Source: a virus (Duplodnaviria > Caudoviricetes). Taken from it: 64,000 nucleotides of DNA. How positions within the stretch are numbered: position 1 is the first letter of the stretch; the number at the start of each line of letters is the position of its first letter. Shown here piece by piece: positions 5,225 through 22,128 of the stretch. The notes beneath the pieces were generated by a model that was not told the origin of the DNA, searched no databases, and worked only from the letters and a program-made list of their open reading frames with translations. The stretch lies in IMG/VR virus record IMGVR_UViG_2833400001_000001, positions 5,232-69,231 of that record; one strand, written 5' to 3'. Position numbers and translations under genes: made by a program.

Positions 5225-5404
5225 TTATTGAGCATTTTTCAATAGCTCAATCGCTTGTTCTAATACTTTACCTTTAGAAATACCTAGTATTTCAGAAAGT
5301 TGATCAATGTCATCTGAAACAGATTTAGGAATCTTAAAGGATTTTGTCACTATACCTCGTTTAGCTTCGCTACGAGCGTTAATCTCTGTTCTTGACAATG
5401 CCAT
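5225..5404 (-). CDS. Small ribbon-helix-helix/HTH-type DNA-binding protein (59 aa, MALSRTEINARS...)
   Basis: ATG at 5402-5404; TKSFKIPKSVSDDIDQLSEILGISKGKVLEQAIELL has strand-helix-helix RHH pattern. Confidence 0.6.
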   Translation of the reverse strand: MALSRTEINARSEAKRGIVTKSFKIPKSVSDDIDQLSEILGISKGKVLEQAIELLKNAQ

Positions 5405-9724: not shown

Positions 9725-10338
9725 TTGATGTCGATAAAACAATAATCAGCCAATACGCCAATAGCCCAATTATCTGCAATTTCATTGAAAGCCTTAATAC
9801 TTGTATCGATCCAAGTAAGAATATTGATGATTTTTACAATTTGATCTGGAATCTAAACACAGCAAAAGGAATTGGACTAGATATTTGGGGGAATATCGTA
9901 GGAATAAACCGCTACATTTTAATTAATGAAAAAAATCAGTTTCTAGGCTCATCTTTGTCAGATAAAGATTTAGAAGATTTTAAGCTAAACACTAATTATC
10001 GAATGAATGATGAAATGTTTAGAAGCATGATTTTCATGAAAGCGTACAGCAATATCATCTACTGTACTGCACATCATATTAATCAATTACTCTCAAACTT
10101 ATTCAAAAAACGTGGACGAGCTTACTTTGTAAAAAATGGAACAATGAAAGCGAGATACGTTTTTGAATTTAATCTCTTACCAGTTGAAAAGGCAGTATTA
10201 ATCAGTACTGATCTATTGCCGCGGCCAACTGGCGTCCTCATAGATTATTACGAACCAGACATCACAAAAACGTTCGGTTTCATAGAAGCAGGATTAGCGC
10301 CATTCGGAGAGGGTGCTTTCTATATCGGCGACGCCTAA
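9721..10338 (+). CDS. Baseplate wedge protein (DUF2612-type)
   Basis: TIISQYANSP, TAKGIGLDIWG, LLPRPTGV motifs. Confidence 0.8.
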   Translation: MIDVDKTIISQYANSPIICNFIESLNTCIDPSKNIDDFYNLIWNLNTAKGIGLDIWGNIVGINRYILINEKNQFLGSSLSDKDLEDFKLNTNYRMNDEMFRSMIFMKAYSNIIYCTAHHINQLLSNLFKKRGRAYFVKNGTMKARYVFEFNLLPVEKAVLISTDLLPRPTGVLIDYYEPDITKTFGFIEAGLAPFGEGAFYIGDA

Positions 10339-10419
10339 TTACTAAATCAATTCAATTTTACACATAACCCACAGCAGCAATGTTGTGGGTTTTTTGTTTT
10401 CTGAAAACAGGGAAATGTC

Positions 10420-11493
10420 ATGAATACACCAAAACTCATTTCAAAGACGTGGGCTGAAAACGGCTTAAAAAATAGCATTCCTAACGATAGAGAAGTCGGA
10501 TTTTCTGATGAAAGGGCGACTTATGAAGAAGGATTTCCATCTATCACAATGACACCTATTGCGCAGGGTGGTAAAGCGCCATCAGGTAAAGATATGAACG
10601 GTATTTTGCATGAAATTACAGCTCATATCGTTTTCCAAAATAAAGGTGGAACGTATCAATTCAATCAAGATTTTGCTAATGAAATTGGTGGGTATGAAAG
10701 AGGATCTATATTAATCAGTGATGATTACACAACAGTATTTGTAAGCTTAGTTGATAACAATACATTAAATTTTAACACAGCCGAAGATTATTCTAGATAT
10801 TGGTCTGTTATTGCCACAACTGGTGTCGCACCGAAAGATCTAGATGAAACAAGCGAAAGTATAACAGATAAAGCAGGTCACTCTCACAAATTACCGATTG
10901 CGACATTATTCGCCAAAGGTATTACAAGTCTATATTCAGGCTATGATTTAGCTAGAGAGGATTTAGCTGCAACACCAAAAGCTATAAATACACTAAAAGC
11001 CTTTATAGATGCACTCGCATCTAATCAACAAAACTATATTCCTAACAGCAAAAAATCTAACTCATTAACATCACCAAGCGCTGACAATGTTGCTACTAGC
11101 TATGCAGTTAATCAAATTTATTCAGCGGTTGTTGCATTATTCAATGGTGATAGATCGGGATTTCAGAGTATTGTTAATTCGTGGGGTGTTTCAGGTATTA
11201 CGCCACTCGGTGTTTCATACGATTTTACTAATCCAAATGCATGGTGGATTAAGTTTGGCCCACTCTATGGAAATCTAATTATCCAAGGGGGACTGATCAA
11301 CGTGACTGGAACTGCTCGATGGTATAATTACCCCATCACTATGTCGAAAAGATTATGTGTAATAATCGGCGCTGCCACATCGCAAGAATGGGGTGTTGTC
11401 GATAGCGTACTTAGCGATACATCAAAATTTCAAGCGAGAAAAACTAATGATAGCTCAGGAACAAATTATTGGTACGCTATAATTGGAGCCTAG
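10420..11493 (+). CDS. Tail fibre: constant region plus currently expressed variable tip (cassette A, 11283-11493)
   Basis: N-term GFPSITMTP..GGKAP.GKDMNGIL baseplate anchor; HSHKLP and AATPKA fibre repeats; NLIIQGG junction coincides with the repeated crossover site. Confidence 0.9.
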   Translation: MNTPKLISKTWAENGLKNSIPNDREVGFSDERATYEEGFPSITMTPIAQGGKAPSGKDMNGILHEITAHIVFQNKGGTYQFNQDFANEIGGYERGSILISDDYTTVFVSLVDNNTLNFNTAEDYSRYWSVIATTGVAPKDLDETSESITDKAGHSHKLPIATLFAKGITSLYSGYDLAREDLAATPKAINTLKAFIDALASNQQNYIPNSKKSNSLTSPSADNVATSYAVNQIYSAVVALFNGDRSGFQSIVNSWGVSGITPLGVSYDFTNPNAWWIKFGPLYGNLIIQGGLINVTGTARWYNYPITMSKRLCVIIGAATSQEWGVVDSVLSDTSKFQARKTNDSSGTNYWYAIIGA

Positions 11494-11725
11494 CCAAGGG
11501 GGAGTCGTTAGAGCTAATGGAATGCCTATTCCTTGGAGTTTCACTTATCCAATTGTGTTATCCTCAAATTTATTATATGCAGATGTAATTAGATATGGTG
11601 GTGCAGGTGCATTCTCAGAGATTATTCAATATAGAGGGTTATCATATTTTACTTGGATAGATAAAGATTGCAGCAACAAAACTGGAGGAGGTGATATTGT
11701 TGGCGTTATTGTTGTTGGGGTCTAA
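11494..11725 (+). other. Silent tail-fibre tip cassette B (QGGVVRANG...VIVVGV*)
   Basis: Open frame from site to TAA; no own start codon or RBS. Confidence 0.85.
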
Positions 11726-11981
11726 CCAAGGGGTAGGTATAGTTAGAGTAAAAGCAACGAACGGGCTAGGTATAACGGTAAACTATCCTGTCAATTTATC
11801 TAAATTTTTGGGAGCAGTAATGACTCCAGAATCTGGGCAAATTGACAATACCAAACCTTACCCTACATTTGAGGGAACGAAATTAAGAAATGCAACAAAT
11901 ACTAGCATATATTATTACAATGATTACGAGAGCACAGAAATAGATAGCATTGTGAGTCTGTTTATTGTAGGTGTTAATTAG
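11726..11981 (+). other. Silent tip cassette C (QGVGIVRVK...FIVGVN*)
   Basis: Variant site CCAAGGGGTA; open to TAG 11979-11981. Confidence 0.85.
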
Positions 11982-11986
11982 TCTAG

Positions 11987-12227
11987 CCAAGGGGGAATGA
12001 TTGCCGATCTTATATCTAACAGACCTGTTTATTTGCCGATAAGCGTGAACAATATTTTTGGTGTTTGGGGTAGTGATGTTGCAGAATATCCCAACCCCAT
12101 CGTGTTTAATTTTAACTATTTCACAAGTATATCTTTTTCAGTAAATGGCGACAGAATAAAATCAAAGATGGATGATCTACACACAGGTACTAATATGTGG
12201 TGTAGATGGATTTGTGTTTGTATTTAA
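11987..12227 (+). other. Silent tip cassette D (QGGMIADL...ICVCI*)
   Basis: Open frame from site to TAA 12225-12227. Confidence 0.85.
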
Positions 12228-12230
12228 TAA

Positions 12231-12444
12231 TTAAACGCCAAGAAATAGTACATTACAAAGCGGTTTATCTGGAAGTCGCGGATCTGATGTTATTCTGTAC
12301 TCAGACTGACTTATAGCACTAATACCGAGCGGAACCGATACGCCGCCAACGTCGGTTGCGACAGACGATATACAACGTTCAGAGAATTGTATTGCAAATT
12401 TTGCAACGGTATTTCTATTTTCACACCAAATCAATCCCCCTTGG
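12231..12444 (-). other. Silent tip cassette E (QGGLIWCEN...LFLGV*)
   Basis: Minus-strand site; converges on cassette D. Confidence 0.85.
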
Positions 12445-12450
12445 CTCGCA

Positions 12451-12682
12451 TTAAATACCAACAACGTAGTACATCGCTGGCCAGTTCGGAGCTTTAGTCG
12501 GAGATTCTGGCGAATAAAACCTTATGCGAACTGAAGAATTATTAGTTGTATTTTCATAGATATTGAAACTCATTGTTAATGATCCAATGTGCATCATATC
12601 CATATAAAACAAATGTGTTAATTTAATTGGGGATGTCACCGTTGCTTCTGCATTAGAATCTGATTTGATCAGTCCCCCTTGG
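12451..12682 (-). other. Silent tip cassette F (QGGLIKSD...YVVGI*)
   Basis: Shares CCAAGGGGGACTGATCAA with the expressed site. Confidence 0.85.
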
Positions 12683-12931
12683 CTAGACACCAACGCTTAT
12701 CCAGTGAGTAAGTATATTTTTTAGATTTTTATCACCGGCACTAGCTACAAACCAAAAATCACGCAGTCCTAAATTTTCAGCAGTTTTCGATAAATAGTAA
12801 TCGTTTATTCCAAGTCCAAGTTCTCCGCTAGCATAGAAATGACTTTTTTGTATGAAATTGCTAATGATATTTTAGAGATGCTGTAACCTTTACCATCATA
12901 GTTAAAAGCATGTATAAAAGCTCCCCCTTGG
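12683..12931 (-). other. Silent tip cassette G (QGGAFIHAFNY...WISVGV*)
   Basis: Translated by hand, open frame to TAG at 12683-12685; absent from ORF track. Confidence 0.85.
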
Positions 12932-12938
12932 CTAGGCG

Positions 12939-13158
12939 TTAGATGCCAGCAACAACATACCTACACCATACATTCGATGTTGCTCCCGACCTTCGTCCAG
13001 ACACTCTAAATGATGACAAACTATAATCGTAAAAACTTATTGACAATGGATCTGTTACAGCAACATCATTAGCTAATACACATAGCATTTGACTAGATAA
13101 ATTTATGGGTATAGTAACTCTTGTACCGTTGACAATATCAAAAAGGATTCCCCCTTGG
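12939..13158 (-). other. Silent tip cassette H (QGGILFDIVNG...YVVAGI*)
   Basis: Translated by hand, open frame to TAA at 12939-12941; absent from ORF track. Confidence 0.85.
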
Positions 13159-13308
13159 CTCGATAAATCAGAATAAAAATGACACTGAAAGCCATTAAAA
13201 AAAACATTAAAAAAATGAAATAAGTATCAAATAAGTAACACGTTTAAACATAGATTAATAAGGCTTTAAATGTGTTTTAAATTTTTAAATAAGTAACATT
13301 TAAGTAAC

Positions 13309-14334
13309 TTATTTTAATAGATTTATTGTTTTTCTTAAGTGAATCAATGTCTTATGTGTATATACTGCATCTCCAACGTTTGATGATGCGTGTCCGAGTA
13401 ATTTATCTCGAGCAACTTTGTTTGCTCCAGCGGCGTCAAGTAATGTTGCAACTGTGTGTCGGCAATCGTGTGTGCTATGCTTTGCTCTGATTGCACGCAT
13501 TACTCGTGCAAATTGTGATGCTGCTTGCGAGTAAATTAGAGCCGTTAAATCTTGATTAACAAATAAGTATTTTGCGCGCTTATTCTCGTGCATTTTTCGT
13601 TCAATAATGGGGAGTATACGTGGGTGTATTGGGATAATACGGATGCCGGCTTTTGTCTTTGCCGTCACAATATCAAAATACTTTTGCTTAAGATTTACGC
13701 AAGACCGCTTTAGTTGCAACAACTCACTGACTCGCATACCGGTGTACAGTAAAATTAGCGTTAAATCGGTGTTGACTGTCGTACATTGCCACACTCGATT
13801 AATTTGTTGGCGTGAAAATATTTTATGTGGGTTTTTCGGAGTATTTTTGCCCATTTGCAAATATTGTCCATATGACTTATCTACCCATTCGTTAATAATA
13901 GCGTATGAAAATAGTTGGTTAATCAAAGATCTTACTTTTTTAAGACTTGCGTATGACAATCCTTTTTCTCGCATTGTATCTAGCACTGTCTGTAGATGAC
14001 GATATTTAATCTTATTAATCGGCATTGCGCTAATCGTTGCAAGGTGATTATAGCTATTTTGATAACTTGATGCGGTTGCAATAGATACTTGTTTTGTGTG
14101 AATTGGATACCAGAGCTGATAAACTTTTGCGAGAGTTACGCTAGGCTCTGGCTTGTCTTGCTGATTGTAATTAGCTAGTGCAGTTAATGCTTCGTCTCTT
14201 GTTGCGTAGTATCCAATTACATTATAAATCTGTTTTTTCTTTTCATTATATCCCACGGTCTTGCGAGCAACATAAGGTTTGCGTCTTGATCCACTTAACT
14301 TCACAACTGAGCCATAGCCATTTGGTAGTCTCAT
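13309..14334 (-). CDS. Tyrosine recombinase, probable shufflon invertase
   Basis: Catalytic set TGMRVSEL, KTKAG, HDCRH, LGH, VYTH; directly beside the inverted-site cluster. Confidence 0.85.
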   Translation of the reverse strand: MRLPNGYGSVVKLSGSRRKPYVARKTVGYNEKKKQIYNVIGYYATRDEALTALANYNQQDKPEPSVTLAKVYQLWYPIHTKQVSIATASSYQNSYNHLATISAMPINKIKYRHLQTVLDTMREKGLSYASLKKVRSLINQLFSYAIINEWVDKSYGQYLQMGKNTPKNPHKIFSRQQINRVWQCTTVNTDLTLILLYTGMRVSELLQLKRSCVNLKQKYFDIVTAKTKAGIRIIPIHPRILPIIERKMHENKRAKYLFVNQDLTALIYSQAASQFARVMRAIRAKHSTHDCRHTVATLLDAAGANKVARDKLLGHASSNVGDAVYTHKTLIHLRKTINLLK

Positions 14335-14426: not shown

Positions 14427-15068
14427 ATGGCACTAACACATTTAATTGTTATTGATCCAAAGAGTGGAGAAAGAGTGACATCTTATGTTGTACCAATTCA
14501 CGGTAAAACATATGAGGTGTTACTAGATAAAGCGCAAGCAGACTATCCCGGATATCTATATTTGCGAGATAATGATGGTGAGTTGCAAGCGATATTAACG
14601 CGTCAAGATGCGCATTGGTTTAACAATAAAGTTCAGATTAGACCATCTCAAATTCACGACTGGGATGGTTCTGCGTGGGTGATTAACGAAGAAAAAAAAG
14701 CAGAGTTACTTAAAAATCAACAAAGTGCAACTTGGGAGCACATTAAAGCAGAAAGGACAAGACGTACTGAAGGTGGTGTCTATGTTAAATCAGTTGATAA
14801 ATGGTTTCACACAGATCAGCCGAGCCGTATTCAGTATTTAAGTATTCAACAAATGCCGACATTACCAGAAAGTTTTGCTTGGAAAACTATGGATAATACA
14901 TTTGTTAATATGACAAAAGCATTGATTGATGAATTGATTTTATCTTTGCGCATTAAAGAACAAGCTGATTTTGCAAACGCAGAGCGACATAAAGCGGCAA
15001 TGTTAGAGAGCGATAACCCCGCAGACTATGACTATTCAGCAGGATGGAGTGACATTTATGACGAATAA
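14427..15068 (+). CDS. Tail fibre assembly-type protein (DUF4376-like)
   Basis: HDWDGSAW, WEHIKAER..GGV...KWFHTD, WKTMDN, AERHKAAM motifs; homologous to 56853-57590. Confidence 0.75.
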   Translation: MALTHLIVIDPKSGERVTSYVVPIHGKTYEVLLDKAQADYPGYLYLRDNDGELQAILTRQDAHWFNNKVQIRPSQIHDWDGSAWVINEEKKAELLKNQQSATWEHIKAERTRRTEGGVYVKSVDKWFHTDQPSRIQYLSIQQMPTLPESFAWKTMDNTFVNMTKALIDELILSLRIKEQADFANAERHKAAMLESDNPADYDYSAGWSDIYDE

Positions 15069-16697: not shown

Positions 16698-16780
16698 AAA
16701 ACCACATAAAGTGAGATTTTTGCGTTTTTAATATTCTCATTTTATGTGGTTTCATTTCTCAAATTATGCGGCTTGCTACA
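16698..16780. promoter_or_regulatory. Mu-type right end: sites R3 (16699-16718, inverted), R2 (16733-16752), R1 (16755-16774), terminal CA
   Basis: R2 ATTCTCATTTTATGTGGTTT vs R1 TTTCTCAAATTATGCGGCTT 15/20 at 22-bp period; R3 reverse complement 18/20 to R2; R1 ends 6 bp before ...GCTACA. Confidence 0.8.
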
Positions 16781-19700
16781 GCCAATGCCAAAAAAATGCC
16801 CTCAAAGAAACACGTAGAATTTTAGACCAATTTGCTGAACGTTGTGGTGATCGTGTCTGGCAAACGGCAATTACTCACGCTGGTTTGCAAACGTTAAAGC
16901 AATTATTACGGCAAACAGCAAGAAAAAATACAGCAGTCGCCTGTTATTGGACGCATGGAAAAAATCAAACTTCATTATTGTGGATAGTAGGCGATCAACG
17001 ACAATTTAATCAAAAAGGGCGTGTACCAACCAATCGAACTCAACGCAATATTTTACGGCAAGAAGATGAAATTGCTTGGCATAATGCTTATAGCATACAG
17101 ATTATTAGTGCATTAGCGGCGTTGTTGCACGATTTAGGCAAATCTAGTATCGGTTTTCAGGAAAAATTAAAACCACAAGCGCCTTTTTATGCTGATCCTT
17201 ATCGACATGAATGGATTTCGGTACGGATATTTGAAGCAATGATTCAAGGATGCCAAACCGATATGGAATGGCTAACACGCTTGGCGAATTGGGCGGAATA
17301 TCAGCAGCAAAATTCAAGTTGGTTGCAACAGATAAAGATAGAAGATCCAACACCAAAACAAGGGCGATTTGAACAGTTATCACCATTAGCGAAAACGATT
17401 ATTTGGTTAATTTCTTCACATCATAGGGTGCCGTATTTACCAGAATTTGCCGAAAAAAATAATAAGCGGAAAAAGGTATGGGAAACGGAAGTAGCGCACG
17501 ATTTAAAGCGTTTTTATCGGTTGTTATCAGCAAGTAATGGCTGGGTTGCTAATCCGCATAGTGAACATCCACAACCGAAGAAATTCTGGCGTTTTAATCA
17601 GTTAGTTTCAGATAGCTCTGCGTGGCAAAAAGCAATGACTCGTTGGGCAAATAAAGCCTTAAAACATACGTCGTTAATGAATTTAGTCAGCAATGTTGAA
17701 AATATTAGTGATCCTTTTTTATTGTTGTTGAGTAGATTGTCATTAATTACAGCTGATCACCATTATTCTTCACTTAATCCTAATCCTCAATTTGGAGAGA
17801 AGGATTTTCCTCTATTTGCGAATACAGATGCGAAAGGGCAGACGAAACAACGTTTAGATGAGCATTTGCTAGGTGTTTGTCAAAGTGCAGTGCGTTTTGC
17901 CCGTATTTTGCCAAGATTGAAAACATTGTTGCCAGCATTAACACATAAAAGTTTTAATAAACGGAGTGATATTGCTCGCTTTCAATGGCAGAATCGAGCT
18001 TTCGATTTAGCAAAACGATTACAAGCCAGTACTGAACAGCAAGGTTTTTTTGGCGTAAATATGGCGAGCACTGGATGTGGTAAAACTGTTGGAAATACTC
18101 GCATTATGTATGCACTCGCCAATCCGCAATTAGGGGCAAGGTTTACTATTGCTTTAGGATTAAGGGTATTAACTTTGCAGACAGGTAGAGCTTTAAAAGA
18201 TAAATTGCGATTAGATGATGATGCACTGGCTGTATTGGTAGGCGGTGATGCTGTTAATAAGTTATTTGCTTTACAGCAAGAAAAATCTGGTAGTGAATCT
18301 GTCGAAGATTGGCTGGAAATGGCACAAGTTGATGGCGGTATAGTTGGAGAGAGTGCGTTAGATAACCTTGCAGAATTTAATACATTGCTTGCTAATCATA
18401 AAGCGAAAAATTTATTACTTACCCCACTCGTTACCTGCACGATTGATTACTTGATGAATGCTAGTGAATGCTTGCGAGGTGGTAAACACATTGTGCCAAT
18501 ATTACGTTTATTGAGTGGTGATTTAATTCTAGATGAACCAGATGATTTTGATCAAAATGACTTGCCAGCCTTGAGCCGTTTAGTGCATCTAGCAGGATTA
18601 TTTGGCAGTAAAGTGTTGCTTTCATCTGCAACATTAACGCCAGATTTGGTGAGTGGTTTGTTTGAAGCTTATCAAGCAGGAAGAAATGTTTGGAATCAGA
18701 ATAATCAATTACCATCTCAAGGCGTTTGTTGTGCTTGGTTTGATGAATTTAATCAGCAAAGTTTTTCTTGTTCAGATCTCGCCAGTTATCAAGCACAGCA
18801 TCAAGAATTTGTTCAGCAAAGAATTAATAAATTGAAACAACAACCCACCAGACGTATGGCAAAAGTAATGTCTTTGCCTAGTGTTGCTGGTGGGGAAAAT
18901 CAAACACTGAATTGGCCGCTATTTGCTCAACATCTGTTACAACAAGCAATAGCATTTCATACCGAGTTTGCGATTAGTGATGATTCATCTACAAAACGAG
19001 TAAGTGTTGGCTTGCTACGGTTTGCGAATATTCGTCCAATGATTCCAACTATCCAAGCAATGTTGCAACAACAATGCCCAGAAAATACAGAAATCCATCT
19101 TTGTTGTTATCATTCACGCCAATTGTTGTTATTACGTAGCCGCTTAGAACAAAGTTTGGATCGCTTATTAACACGAAATGATCCACAGGCTTTATTTCAA
19201 CAACCTGAAATAAAATTAGCATTAGACAATAGCCAAAATGAAAATCATATTTTTATTGTAGTAGGCAGTCCGGTGACGGAAGTGGGACGTGATCATGATT
19301 ACGATTGGGCAATTATCGATCCGTCGTCAATGCGTTCTATTATCCAATTAGCTGGACGAGTGTGGCGACATCGTCCAGATAAAGTTGCAACAACGCCGAA
19401 TATTGCATTGTTACCAAGTAACTGGAAAGGGCTAAAAGGGCATCACTATACACGAGAAATTTTTTATCATCCCGGTTTTGAAAGCAGTGAACATCCTCTC
19501 ATTTCTCACCGTACACAAGATATTATTAACCCAGAACAACTTGCTGTTGTGGACGCAGTAGCGAGAATTGAAGCTCCAACTGAATTGGATGAGAATGCGA
19601 AGGCACAAAAAACGCTAGCAGAGTTAGAGCATAGTGTGATGAGAAAGATGTTTAATAGTTCTAGTTTAAATTATGTCAATGGCTATTGGCGTAGTGATAA

Positions 19701-20088
19701 TGCTAAATTAGCTGCACACTATACGTTGACTACGCCGTTTCGGGCCTCACAAAAAATGGAAGATTTTGTCTGTTTACCTGATGATGAAAGTTCGTGGGGT
19801 TATGCCTTTGCGTATAGTGAAAAAGCACATCAGAATTTATTCTCTTGTAATAAAGAGTGGCATAGGTTTCAGTATCAACCGATTAAAAATCAAAATTCAC
19901 TGATTAAGCCATGGCTTGTTTTTTCCTTAACAACAGCATTGGATGAGCTAACAGAAGCATTAAAGTTAAAAGATATTGAACAAACAGCGTTATCTTATGC
20001 AACCGTTTCATTAAGAAAAGATGAGCAAACAGAAGCAGTTTGGCAATTTAATGAGTTTTTAGGCTTTTGGCGACAGGAAGAGCAATAG
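16744..20088 (+). CDS. cas3: Type I-F Cas2-Cas3 fusion helicase-nuclease; native N-terminus replaced by phage-end sequence
   Basis: SQCQKNALKETRRILDQFAER (Cas2), LHDLGK (HD), STGCGKT, ILDEPD, SAT, QLAGRVWRH; first 12 codons come from the Mu-type end. Confidence 0.95.
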   Translation: MWFHFSNYAACYSQCQKNALKETRRILDQFAERCGDRVWQTAITHAGLQTLKQLLRQTARKNTAVACYWTHGKNQTSLLWIVGDQRQFNQKGRVPTNRTQRNILRQEDEIAWHNAYSIQIISALAALLHDLGKSSIGFQEKLKPQAPFYADPYRHEWISVRIFEAMIQGCQTDMEWLTRLANWAEYQQQNSSWLQQIKIEDPTPKQGRFEQLSPLAKTIIWLISSHHRVPYLPEFAEKNNKRKKVWETEVAHDLKRFYRLLSASNGWVANPHSEHPQPKKFWRFNQLVSDSSAWQKAMTRWANKALKHTSLMNLVSNVENISDPFLLLLSRLSLITADHHYSSLNPNPQFGEKDFPLFANTDAKGQTKQRLDEHLLGVCQSAVRFARILPRLKTLLPALTHKSFNKRSDIARFQWQNRAFDLAKRLQASTEQQGFFGVNMASTGCGKTVGNTRIMYALANPQLGARFTIALGLRVLTLQTGRALKDKLRLDDDALAVLVGGDAVNKLFALQQEKSGSESVEDWLEMAQVDGGIVGESALDNLAEFNTLLANHKAKNLLLTPLVTCTIDYLMNASECLRGGKHIVPILRLLSGDLILDEPDDFDQNDLPALSRLVHLAGLFGSKVLLSSATLTPDLVSGLFEAYQAGRNVWNQNNQLPSQGVCCAWFDEFNQQSFSCSDLASYQAQHQEFVQQRINKLKQQPTRRMAKVMSLPSVAGGENQTLNWPLFAQHLLQQAIAFHTEFAISDDSSTKRVSVGLLRFANIRPMIPTIQAMLQQQCPENTEIHLCCYHSRQLLLLRSRLEQSLDRLLTRNDPQALFQQPEIKLALDNSQNENHIFIVVGSPVTEVGRDHDYDWAIIDPSSMRSIIQLAGRVWRHRPDKVATTPNIALLPSNWKGLKGHHYTREIFYHPGFESSEHPLISHRTQDIINPEQLAVVDAVARIEAPTELDENAKAQKTLAELEHSVMRKMFNSSSLNYVNGYWRSDNAKLAAHYTLTTPFRASQKMEDFVCLPDDESSWGYAFAYSEKAHQNLFSCNKEWHRFQYQPIKNQNSLIKPWLVFSLTTALDELTEALKLKDIEQTALSYATVSLRKDEQTEAVWQFNEFLGFWRQEEQ

Positions 20089-20185
20089 TGGTTTTTTTCG
20101 GCGAGGTACATACAGATAAAGAGAATAATAATCTCAATTTAAAGTAGCTTTAAATCACGTTTAAATTACGTTTAAAAGAGATTTT

Positions 20186-20995
20186 GGTCTAAGCTGCCTA
20201 TGCGGCAGTAAAGGCACAGGAAGAGGTACCTGCTCACATCATGGATTTCTAAGCTGCCTATGCGGCAGTAAAGAAACATCTATTGATTTGCATGGTATTC
20301 ATTATTTTCTAAGCTGCCTATGCGGCAGTAAAGTTCGCCATTAAACATTTAGGATGTTTTAATGATTTCTAAGCTGCCTATGCGGCAGTAAAGAATGGGT
20401 TTATGCCGGTGGGGAAAAGTTACCATTTCTAAGCTGCCTATGCGGCAGTAAAGTGCGGATCAAGTCTTTAATTGGGCGGATAACTTTTTCTAAGCTGCCT
20501 ATGCGGCAGTAAAGCATTACCAGTTTCGTAGTGACTAGGTGTAATCTTTCTAAGCTGCCTATGCGGCAGTAAAGGAGTACCGAGAAAGCTACATCAAGAT
20601 CTACATTTTCTAAGCTGCCTATGCGGCAGTAAAGTTATTCGGACTCTAACCAAGGGGGAACGCTAGTTTCTAAGCTGCCTATGCGGCAGTAAAGGTCTCA
20701 TTGTACTGTCCGCCTAGTACGTTCGTTTTCTAAGCTGCCTATGCGGCAGTAAAGCACTATCAGGTAAACCTGTTATGCTTAGAAATTTTCTAAGCTGCCT
20801 ATGCGGCAGTAAAGCTAGTAGTAAAAAGCCAAGAAAGAAAAATAATGTTTCTAAGCTGCCTATGCGGCAGTAAAGTGAGTATTGCTACATTGATATTAGG
20901 CGAAAGTTTTCTAAGCTGCCTATGCGGCAGTAAAGTAAGTGTGTAATTCGTCGCACCAACAGTGATTTTTCTAAGCTGCCTTTATGGCAGTGTAG
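20186..20995 (-). CRISPR. Type I-F CRISPR array, 14 repeats (28 bp, CTTTACTGCCGCATAGGCAGCTTAGAAA), 13 spacers of 32-33 bp
   Basis: Repeats counted by hand; Cas6f-type hairpin CTGCC-GCATA-GGCAG; both terminal repeats degenerate; orientation supported by CC PAMs of two near-matches. Confidence 0.98.
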
Positions 20996-21087
20996 TCTTT
21001 GATGTAAGATAAAATATTGAATTTAAAAGAAAATATCTGTTTTTAGAAAAGTGAGAGTTCCGAAAAAAAGTGCATTTTTCCGAAACT

Positions 21088-22128
21088 CTATTTAGTTGGA
21101 TTGACTACACGAGTCTTACGGATGTAACGTTGTGTCATACGTACAGACTTATGACCGAGTTGTTTTTGTGCAGATTCATCTGTGAAAGCAAGAGCAGTAT
21201 CAGTACCCGCCTTTGCACGTAAATCTCGAAATTGAAACTCGGCAATTTCGTCTGCCAACTCAGGGTATTTTTCCAAAGCTACATTACGAAGATTGCGAAA
21301 TCTTTCACTAAGCGTTGTTCTCCTTAATTTACCCCCTCTAGAATGTAGAAATAGATAGCCTGGGTGAGTTTCCATGCGCCTTGTTATAATGTCTGCGAGC
21401 TGGCCAACTAATTTTATTCTGACTTTTGCTTTAGTCTTTTGTTGCGTGATATGCAAAATGCCGTCAAAAATATGGTTTGTGTGAATATTGCAGACATCAA
21501 TCGGGCGTTGTCCGGTTAGATAAGCGATATCCATTAAGTCGCGCATATCCTGATCCGCAAGTAGATAGAGTTTATTGTAGATATGGTCCTCGATATACAC
21601 ATCTCTAGTTTCTAACGTATATTTAGTTACCCCATCAGTTGGACAAATTAGATTTGTGTAGCCCCACTCACGTGCGAATGACCATATTCTATGAAACATT
21701 TCAACTTCATAGTTTGCTGATCTGGGAGTATCTTTTCGCCACTCAAGATACATCTTGATGTGCTTAGCTTGGATTTTTTCGAGCTGAATTGGAGGGTCTC
21801 CGAAAAAAGCCATTAGTCTATTTGTTGCCCATCTATAGTTGTCTTGTGTAGCTTTTGCTTTATTGTCTAATTGAGAGTTTAGATAACGAGTAGCGACAGT
21901 GATAAATGTTGTAATTTCGGTTTGAGTGGTTCTATCGAGATTTAACTCAGCGGCTTTTAGTACTGCAATATGCTTATCATTAGTTTTAAGAGAGATTTCT
22001 TTTCCGTCAGCGTTGACGTAGTAATAGTAATTAACATATTTACCATTTTTACGTTTTCTGCGACGGCAGAGTAGGTGTTGCGGTAAGCCATTATTCTCTC
22101 TGTTTCGAGGTCTTGCCATTTTGATCAC
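21088..22128 (-). CDS. int: Phage integrase (tyrosine recombinase); likely start 22119
   Basis: TGQRPIDV, QQKT, FRDLRAK, LGH, TQRY motifs; at the prophage edge. Confidence 0.9.
   Translation of the reverse strand: MIKMARPRNRENNGLPQHLLCRRRKRKNGKYVNYYYYVNADGKEISLKTNDKHIAVLKAAELNLDRTTQTEITTFITVATRYLNSQLDNKAKATQDNYRWATNRLMAFFGDPPIQLEKIQAKHIKMYLEWRKDTPRSANYEVEMFHRIWSFAREWGYTNLICPTDGVTKYTLETRDVYIEDHIYNKLYLLADQDMRDLMDIAYLTGQRPIDVCNIHTNHIFDGILHITQQKTKAKVRIKLVGQLADIITRRMETHPGYLFLHSRGGKLRRTTLSERFRNLRNVALEKYPELADEIAEFQFRDLRAKAGTDTALAFTDESAQKQLGHKSVRMTQRYIRKTRVVNPTK

Follow-up and report, generated by a model that had tools for sequence, protein, structure and literature searches.

A tail-fibre tip shufflon adjoining a tyrosine recombinase in a Gallibacterium prophage

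A prophage of the poultry bacterium Gallibacterium stores eight tips for its tail fibre, seven of them intact, and comparative data show that the DNA rearranges exactly at the 13-bp sites that head them. We identified this shufflon in a 64,000-nucleotide window of a Caudoviricetes genome (IMG/VR record IMGVR_UViG_2833400001_000001, positions 5,232 to 69,231; coordinates below are those of the window). The array reported in a first-pass annotation of this DNA was confirmed by our analysis, and its reading as a tail-fibre shufflon with an adjacent tyrosine recombinase is supported. However, the principle is already known from prophages of Bifidobacterium.

Anatomy of the cassette array

The first-pass annotation described eight CCAAGGGG(G/T)A sites, four on each strand. 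The corresponding pattern, CCAAGGGGKA, has nine exact matches in the window against 0.07 expected, and none of 100 shuffled sequences reached nine. Eight of these matches form the array, at 11283, 11494, 11726 and 11987 on the plus strand and at 12435-12444, 12673-12682, 12922-12931 and 13149-13158 on the minus strand. The ninth, at 20650, is not part of the array but sits inside a CRISPR spacer (20635-20666). The conserved site is longer than originally described, as 53 sites from 12 loci share the 13-bp sequence TA(G/T)CCAAGGGGGA. In two whole Gallibacterium genomes of 2.4 Mb, all 14 exact copies of the 13-mer lie in the shufflons.

The fibre ORF (10420-11493, plus strand) contains only the first of these sites. 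Its constant region (10420-11282, residues 1-288, ending in G-N-L-I-I) matches PHROG 1396 tail fibre at 2e-51 and Pfam Phage_fiber_2 at 4e-07. Crossover site 1 (11280-11292, TATCCAAGGGGGA) encodes I-Q-G-G within this ORF and is followed by cassette 1 (11284-11493), the currently expressed tip of 69 amino acids plus a stop codon. Read in the frame C|CAA|GGG|GGA, each site opens, with Gln-Gly-Gly or Gln-Gly-Val, a start-less frame. These frames run for 69-84 codons and end in a hydrophobic-Gly-X motif, with the exception of cassette 7. A frame of 69 or more open codons occurs in 0.7% of shuffles of this DNA.

The remaining cassettes are silent. On the plus strand, site 2 and cassette 2 (76 amino acids) occupy 11491-11725, site 3, a variant ending in GGGGTA that opens Q-G-V, and cassette 3 (84 amino acids) occupy 11723-11981, and site 4 and cassette 4 (79 amino acids) occupy 11984-12227. 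Cassette 4 lies tail-to-tail with cassette 5 (12231-12447, 70 amino acids, site at 12435-12447), the first of four on the minus strand. It is followed by cassette 6 (12451-12685, 76 amino acids, site at 12673-12685), cassette 7 (12690-12934, site at 12922-12934) and cassette 8 (12939-13161, 72 amino acids, site at 13149-13161), which forms the recombinase-proximal end of the array. Although cassette 7 had been counted as a complete tip ending in SVGV, it stops after 41 codons. The SVGV ending lies in another frame, and the shift falls near an A6 run. The downstream frame is 38% identical to an intact cassette of a related locus (L019). Cassette 7 is a pseudo-cassette in this record.

To examine the tips, we predicted the structure of cassette 8, which folded with a pLDDT of 93. 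The best structural matches are the gp53 tail fibre of phage AP22 (TMq 0.76), the R2-pyocin fibre (0.69-0.70), the Pam1 tailspike receptor-binding domain and H-type lectins, the first two matching at their distal tips. Beyond the recombinase gene, a DUF4376 tail protein (14427-15068, plus strand; Pfam DUF4376 at 7.5e-22, PHROG 2837 tail protein at 6.8e-57) is a possible fibre-assembly factor. It lies outside the invertible DNA and so is common to all tips.

The adjacent tyrosine recombinase

An intact 341-residue tyrosine recombinase is encoded at 13309-14334 on the minus strand, with its stop codon 150 bp from the last site. It matches PF00589 at 1.3e-19 (71.1 bits against a cut-off of 27.1), and its catalytic residues R201, K226, H289, R292, H315 and Y325 are invariant in 16 homologues. 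By profile, the best solved relative is Tn1549 Int (6emy, 4.7e-17), and the nearest named relatives, 30-36% identical, are ordinary lysogeny-module integrases of Fusobacterium and Butyrivibrio phages. No NCBIfam model passed its cut-off. Although the first-pass annotation had listed the R64 Rci/sfx shufflon among its precedents, the enzyme is not Rci-like but belongs to an ordinary phage/Tn916-type integrase lineage. A tblastn search of 72,556 plasmid records matched only 36 at E<=1e-3, and the listed hits are annotated integrases, none of them an rci gene of an IncI plasmid.

Besides a core-binding and a catalytic domain, the protein has about 66 extra N-terminal residues that are predicted to fold as three strands plus a helix (pLDDT 82). 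Pfam finds nothing in residues 1-70. The top Foldseek hits of this region are AP2/ERF domains and the integrase arm domains 3ju0, 3rmp and 3jtz, but only at E values of 0.4-2, and VIA-align gave Z scores of 4.1-4.3 for AP2 domains among unrelated rows. Additionally, the AT-rich spacer between the array and the recombinase gene (13162-13308) holds tandem GTTACTTATTT-type repeats at 13218-13239 and 13287-13314, which we infer to be candidate arm-type binding sites. Four of the window's five matches cluster here, and an alignment of nine loci shows a conserved block. GTTAC occurs 16 times against 2.0 expected across 12 loci, always on one strand, but is absent from 4 of them.

Because the phage is cut at the left end of the record, its own transposition genes are not visible, and we turned to complete relatives. 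One of these (G004) encodes MuA (DDE_2 at 6e-58, HTH_Tnp_Mu_1 and _2, and Mu-transpos_C) and MuB (Phage-MuB_C). In G004 and a second complete relative (G003), the recombinase is the only PF00589 gene. The serine recombinase family PF00239 is absent from both and from two further records (G000 and G001), although control genomes matched it. Judging from these relatives, the recombinase is distinct from the integration enzyme and sits where gin sits in Mu. The gene order of Baseplate_J, wedge, fibre, cassettes and recombinase is conserved at 49-56% recombinase identity. Recombinases 45-63% identical, from a Veillonellaceae MAG, a Veillonella-like contig and metagenomes, flank similar arrays with other versions of the site.

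Rearrangement at the sites

Comparison of cassette order across related elements, which had been set beforehand as a test, showed that the order is not fixed. Two relatives with 99.97% identical flanks (L027 and L028) differ by re-ordering and inversion of a 684-bp and a 485-bp block, each bounded by sites. Another pair (L023 and L026) holds the same five cassettes in a different order, and the pairs L015/L019 and L014/L016 share cassette pairs in opposite orientation. At the locus itself, a Logan contig (L044) is 100% identical to window positions 15713-13149 and then continues 100% identical with 12684-12653, joining the recombinase-side flank to cassette 6 rather than cassette 8, although this junction could also arise by deletion between directly repeated sites rather than by two inversions. 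Draft assemblies also break at the sites: an NCBI draft contig (L045) ends exactly in the site, and contigs of another genome (G076) end and begin at sites.

The Pasteurellaceae host guessed in the first-pass annotation is right, as the locus is from Gallibacterium. A prophage of Gallibacterium salpingitidis (L046) shows a tip swap on one constant region. Its constant region is 99.7% identical, at 290 of 291 residues up to Q-G-G, but it expresses a different tip and stores the tip of our window, 96% identical, silent and inverted.

We conclude with high confidence that this is a multiple-inversion system that changes the receptor-binding tip of a contractile-tail phage fibre. In this model, the recombinase exchanges strands between two oppositely oriented sites, and polymorphisms that travel with the flank or with the cassette place the crossover inside the invariant 7-bp CCAAGGG. 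Each event would invert the intervening DNA and either fuse a new promoter-less and start-less cassette of about 210-255 bp, encoding a small six-stranded beta tip, in frame behind L-I-I-Q-G-G or re-order the silent stock. From the present state, cassettes 5-8 could reach the expressed position in one inversion, while cassettes 2-4 would need two. Virions of one population would then carry different tips and probably recognize different surface carbohydrates or receptors of Gallibacterium strains. As the phage belongs to a Mu-like group whose complete members integrate by MuA/MuB transposition, the recombinase would not be needed for integration and would occupy the slot that gin and the G segment occupy in Mu. 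Our data establish the anatomy, the predicted tip fold, the intact catalytic residues, the restriction of the site to this locus and the natural rearrangements at the sites. That this recombinase is the catalyst, that inversion occurs within a single clone and at useful frequency in a lysogen, that the tips differ in receptor specificity and that the GTTAC repeats are arm-type sites are inferences.

Other explanations appear very unlikely. The array could be a static or decayed stock of duplicated tip segments beside an integrase or its relic, with the repeats reflecting only conserved Q-G-G codons, as the enzyme's named relatives are lysogeny integrases, the phage's own transposase is not seen and one cassette is frameshifted. 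However, the 13-mer extends 3 bp upstream of these codons into unrelated flanks and stop codons, rearrangements occur exactly at the sites between near-identical elements and in this locus, complete relatives carry MuA/MuB and no other tyrosine recombinase, and the gene lies between tail genes rather than at a prophage end. The rearrangements could instead be made by RecA-type recombination, a host Xer-type or other recombinase, or a co-resident prophage acting in trans. Consistent with this, L027 and L028 carry the same -1 frameshift in a G4 run of the recombinase gene and yet differ by two inversions, so that either the inversions came first, a recombinase acted in trans or the run slips back; some genomes do hold two such prophages (L014 and L020 come from one IMG genome). 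Nonetheless, 10 to 13 bp of identity is far too short for RecA, the recombinase and an array with a co-varying site version (CCAAGGGGGA, CCCAGGGGGGA, CCAAGGTGGA or CAGTGGGGA) travel together across 45-84% identity and across hosts, and a trans-acting copy would still be a member of the same family.

It is also possible, though again very unlikely as the main role, that the sites serve as integron-like joints for exchanging cassettes over evolutionary time rather than as a fast switch within a clone. Cassette number varies from 2 to 11 among relatives, the near-identical constant region of L046 is combined with a different array and a recombinase only 62% identical, and the L044 junction is compatible with a deletion. 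Additionally, L046 and a related locus (L047) differ by one whole cassette between direct sites, so that deletion is not fully excluded by the system unless an assembly is wrong. The equal 4+4 inverted layout, the tail-to-tail pairs, the exact two-inversion differences and the assembly breaks in isolate drafts nevertheless point to frequent inversion, and the two roles are not exclusive.

Relationship to known inversion systems

While the first-pass annotation knew of no such system in Pasteurellaceae phages, there is precedent elsewhere. The closest is the Rin shufflon of Bifidobacterium breve and B. longum prophages (Mavrich et al. 2018, PMC6109161), also reported in Eggerthella lenta prophages in 2022 (PMC8778435). 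In both Rin and our system, a constant 5' part of a receptor-binding-protein gene is followed by several start-less 3' cassettes in both orientations, each behind a short asymmetric site (11 bp for rix, 13 bp here), with a tyrosine recombinase gene at the far end and evidence from inversions between related prophages. The rix 11-mer is unrelated in sequence (TTCCCTAACCC for our site, TAKCCAAGGGGGA for rix). Rin is XerD-like and lacks an arm-type domain, and it is found in actinobacterial siphoviruses with five cassettes and tips of 95-100 amino acids that resemble the TP901-1 head. The enzyme described here has the extra N-terminal domain, and its array, in a Gram-negative contractile-tail phage of a Mu-like group, has eight cassettes (up to 11 in relatives) with tips of 69-84 amino acids that resemble pyocin and AP22 fibre tips.

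The Mu G segment with Gin, the P1 C segment with Cin and p15B Min serve the same purpose, alternative fibre C-termini. The slot in a Mu-like phage is also the same, with the fibre gene, invertible DNA and invertase followed by a com/methylase-type right end, and Min likewise gives multiple inversions. These systems use serine invertases, and Mu and P1 have two states in which each variable part carries its own assembly-chaperone gene, whereas our cassettes are tips only. The R64/IncI shufflon (Rci recombinase, sfx sites, pilV tips; Komano 1999) is a multiple-inversion system of a plasmid pilus adhesin rather than a phage fibre. It is driven by a tyrosine recombinase at short asymmetric sites in which only one side is conserved, and swaps the C-terminal tip of an adhesive fibre protein, but its site sequences differ from ours. 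Finally, the temperate Enterobacter phage FR-phi carries a tail-fibre shufflon with gin and three alternative C-termini (PMC13418256). Its isoforms were seen in long reads, only one infects the tested host, and inversion was tested with a gin deletion.

A more speculative reading, which we consider possible but unlikely, is that a lambda/Tn916-type integrase complete with an arm-binding domain has been turned into an invertase. It would use the one-sided cluster of candidate arm-type repeats (GTTACTTATTT, 13218-13314) next to its own gene as an accessory element to assemble an invertasome that favors inversion over deletion among eight core sites. Such arm-site dependence would be a testable answer to how a tyrosine recombinase is restricted to inversion, the directionality puzzle left open for Rin. 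The portable 13-bp joints would also let unrelated phages trade tips, and because spacers can be captured across a joint, as at 20635-20666, each inversion would also break such protospacers.

While the textbook host-range switches of Mu, P1 and p15B use serine invertases, here a phage of a Mu-like group fills the same slot with an eight-cassette system adjoining, and presumably driven by, an integrase-type tyrosine recombinase. Because short-read assemblies break at these sites and annotation reports only the fused tip, host-range predictions for such prophages miss most of their receptor-binding repertoire. The tiny tips, about 70 amino acids long, confidently folded in prediction and joined at a fixed Q-G-G, are a natural library for studying receptor recognition in a poultry-associated genus. 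The same design recurs, with several versions of the site and recombinases 45-84% identical, in Gallibacterium, a Veillonellaceae MAG, a Veillonella-like contig and metagenomic phages, and the principle first described for Rin in Actinobacteria is therefore broader than the literature we consulted shows.

Array, sites and predicted cassette products

The eight-cassette array described in the first-pass annotation is present, with one correction to its contents. The motif CCAAGGGGKA occurs nine times in the 64-kb window, against 0.07 expected, and eight of these copies lie between 11283 and 13158. Four are on the + strand (11283, 11494, 11726 and 11987) and four on the - strand (ending at 12444, 12682, 12931 and 13158). 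Read as C|CAA|GGG|GGA, each site opens a frame of 69-84 codons that begins Q-G-G, or Q-G-V at site 3, and ends in a hydrophobic-Gly-X motif. A frame that long is found in 0.7% of shuffles of this 38% G+C DNA. Although the annotation counted eight different tips, cassette 7 is broken. It stops after 41 codons, and its conserved C-terminal half, which is 38% identical to an intact cassette of a relative, continues in another frame, with the shift falling near an A6 run. The seven intact cassettes are only 17-30% identical to each other.

Only site 1 lies inside the fibre ORF (10420-11493), a PHROG tail fibre at 2e-51 with a Phage_fiber_2 repeat. A 341-aa tyrosine recombinase is encoded convergently at 13309-14334 and ends 150 bp from site 8. 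Baseplate_J and DUF2612/wedge genes lie upstream, and a DUF4376 tail protein and a Dam-like methyltransferase lie downstream. A strong terminator-like hairpin (10366-10391; 11 pairs plus a T run) lies between the end of the wedge gene at 10338 and the fibre start codon at 10420. Promoter-like sites are at shuffle level, with 20 found against 20.4 expected. A megablast search of the locus against 50,697 phage records found no match.

To define the site more precisely, we compared 53 sites from this window and 11 related loci, which give the consensus TA(G/T)CCAAGGGGGA. The sequence to the left is otherwise unconserved and is either the stop codon of the preceding cassette, the constant region (...CTAATTAT), or the recombinase-side flank. 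The position counts of the 53 sites show no dyad symmetry around the core, so the site is asymmetric. CCAAGGG is invariant in every site seen, including the variants GGGGTA, GGGATA, GGGTTA and GGGAGGA. In two related loci, L027 and L028, a cassette whose site carries a one-base insertion after CCAAGGG keeps that insertion while its left flank changes from the constant region to the recombinase-side flank, and the base just left of the site stays with the flank. The crossover therefore lies within the 7-bp CCAAGGG, a normal overlap length for tyrosine recombinases. In two whole 2.4-Mb Gallibacterium genomes, all 14 exact copies of the 13-mer lie in their shufflons.

An alignment of 69 distinct cassettes has only 15% mean column identity but shares Q-G/W-G, a central 'P-I-x-h' strand and a final 'Y/W-h-x-h-G' strand. 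It gives a confident structural model with six strands (pLDDT 93). The best structural matches are distal parts of fibres, namely gp53 of Acinetobacter phage AP22 (TMq 0.76), the R2-pyocin fibre C-terminus (0.69-0.70) and the cyanophage Pam1 tailspike receptor-binding domain, followed by H-type lectins. Although the E-values are weak (0.03-0.2), this is expected for 72 residues. We read the predicted fold as a small lectin-like fibre tip, which fits a receptor-binding role but does not prove it.

The adjacent tyrosine recombinase

The recombinase residues R201, K226, H289, R292, H315 and Y325 are invariant in 16 homologues. By profile, its closest solved relative is the Tn1549 integrase (6emy, 4.7e-17), followed by the Xer proteins. 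Relatives at 30-36% identity in Fusobacterium and Butyrivibrio phages are ordinary integrases in lysogeny modules. The protein is not Rci-like, and all NCBIfam models, including XerA, XerC, XerD, the integron integrase and the Fim-type invertase model, fall far below their cut-offs.

Residues 1-66 precede the core-binding domain and are predicted to fold as three strands plus a helix (pLDDT 82), the topology of arm-type DNA-binding domains. Pfam finds nothing on residues 1-70, and two structure searches put AP2-like and arm domains near the top, but only as weak matches. The 150-bp spacer next to the gene holds two tandem pairs of GTTACTTATTT-like repeats, and a related block is conserved in nine loci. 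Over 12 loci, GTTAC occurs 16 times against 2.0 expected, always on the same strand, although four loci lack it. That these repeats are arm-type sites is an inference from sequence.

Close homologues of the recombinase occur in 4 of 236 Pasteurellaceae species genomes, and the named close homologues are all Gallibacterium. Homologues at 45-63% identity come from a Veillonellaceae MAG, a Veillonella-like metagenome contig and other metagenomic contigs. They sit in the same synteny, with arrays of 2-9 cassettes and other versions of the site: CCCAGGGGGGA and CCAAGGTGGA, which both encode Q-G-G, and CAGTGGGGA, which encodes Q-W-G. The tips of the two groups are recognisably related. In the loci L040 and L041, whose recombinase is 49% identical, only a tentative site, TGGAGCTAA, could be read from shared k-mers.

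Rearrangement at the sites

To look for other copies of this locus in a different arrangement, we searched for the recombinase protein, and found the identical protein on two other contigs. One, an NCBI draft contig (L045), ends exactly at ...GAGCCAAGGGG (position 2109). The other, a Logan contig, is 100% identical to window positions 15713-13149 and then continues, across the 12-nt shared site, 100% identical to 12684-12653. This joins the recombinase-side flank to cassette 6 instead of cassette 8. From the window's order, this junction needs two inversions or one deletion between direct sites. Exact searches for the constant-region junction in IMG/VR and in JGI metagenomes found nothing.

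Related elements also differ at the sites. L027 and L028 have flanks that are 99.97% identical and differ only by the order and orientation of a 684-bp and a 485-bp block bounded by sites, which amounts to two inversions. In a distant clade, the loci L023 and L026 hold the same five cassettes in a different order, again two inversions. Two further pairs of related loci, L015/L019 and L014/L016, share tail-to-tail cassette pairs in opposite orientation.

We also asked whether the same constant region occurs with other tips. A search with the whole fibre gave only one near-identical relative, P0182. A prophage in a complete G. salpingitidis genome (L046) has a fibre identical at 290 of 291 residues up to Q-G-G, followed by an unrelated tip, while a 96%-identical copy of this window's expressed tip sits there silent and inverted, next to the recombinase. 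In this prophage (L046:8001-10790), a constant region 99.7% identical to the window's is paired with a different cassette set and a recombinase that is only 62% identical, which represents module exchange with a boundary at the crossover site.

Consistent with these comparisons, short-read draft assemblies repeatedly end or begin exactly at shufflon sites. In addition to L045, this is seen in assembly G076 (contig C25 at about 85284 and contig C49 at 3-15) and at the ends of the loci L012, L018 and L020. A 13-bp repeat alone would not cause this, but mixed junctions in the sequenced culture would.

Two observations complicate a simple history of inversion by the adjacent enzyme. The recombinase gene of L027 and L028 carries the same -1 frameshift in a G4 run (GGGG to GGG; L027:2480-2490 and L028:3897-3907), which splits it into 190-aa and 140-aa ORFs, and yet the two loci differ by two inversions. 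Either the order of these events or a helper acting in trans may account for this. One of their cassettes (X) also has a 1-nt insertion in its site that puts it out of frame when fused. Additionally, L046 and L047, a Logan contig that carries the identical fibre protein, differ by exactly one 260-bp cassette lying between two directly oriented sites (L046:9396-9760 against L047:2783-3420). In L047 the neighbouring site has four G instead of five. Deletion (excision) or insertion at the sites, or an assembly collapse, must therefore be allowed for. Taken together, the comparative data support the annotation's interpretation of a tail-fibre shufflon. They show rearrangement at the sites between related elements and in one alternative junction of this locus, while switching within a single clone, and the adjacent recombinase as its catalyst, are inferred.

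Phage context and relation to known systems

The ninth CCAAGGGGGA lies outside the array, in spacer 8 (20635-20666) of a type I-F-like CRISPR array (about 20186-20995; 28-nt repeats, 13 spacers) just downstream of cas2-3. The spacer reads as a cassette end, TAA, the shufflon site and the start of the next cassette (Q-G-G-T-L), and was therefore captured across a shufflon joint of a related phage. It matches none of the junctions in the window or in the related loci examined at 6 or fewer mismatches. An inversion in the target phage would split such a protospacer. Spacer 6 (20515-20546) matches the resident shufflon phage's own upstream region (record G000 2136-2167, locus L029) at 28 of 32 positions, but no CC PAM lies beside the match. 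In this region (16744-21087), cas2-3 (1114 aa, with Cas2, HD and C-terminal domains) is followed directly by the CRISPR array, no cas1 or csy genes are in view, and a prophage lies on each side. The second prophage (21088 to about 62600) is unrelated and has its own tyrosine integrase (21088-22128, - strand), DUF2303 and PD-(D/E)XK genes, an SU10-like portal and a 2419-aa ORF.

The principle of this system was described for the Rin shufflon of Bifidobacterium prophages, called there the first phage-encoded tyrosine invertase, and later for Eggerthella prophages. The locus studied here differs from Rin in phage type and host, in site sequence, in cassette number, in predicted tip fold, and in having an integrase-type enzyme with an extra N-terminal domain, whereas Rin is XerD-like and its authors left the directionality question open. 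In the literature searched, we found no description of such a system in Mu-like or Pasteurellaceae phages.

The window is part of a 69-kb IMG/VR record, and the shufflon phage is cut at the left end of that record, so we turned to complete relatives to ask whether the recombinase could be the integrase. Two complete relatives (37.0 and 37.4 kb) have this gene as their only tyrosine recombinase and no serine recombinase. One of them, G004, encodes MuA (DDE_2 at 6e-58, both Mu HTH domains and the Mu C-terminal domain) and MuB. We conclude from these relatives that the recombinase is not the integrase, and that these are Mu-like transposable phages in which the recombinase and array occupy the place of gin and the G segment.
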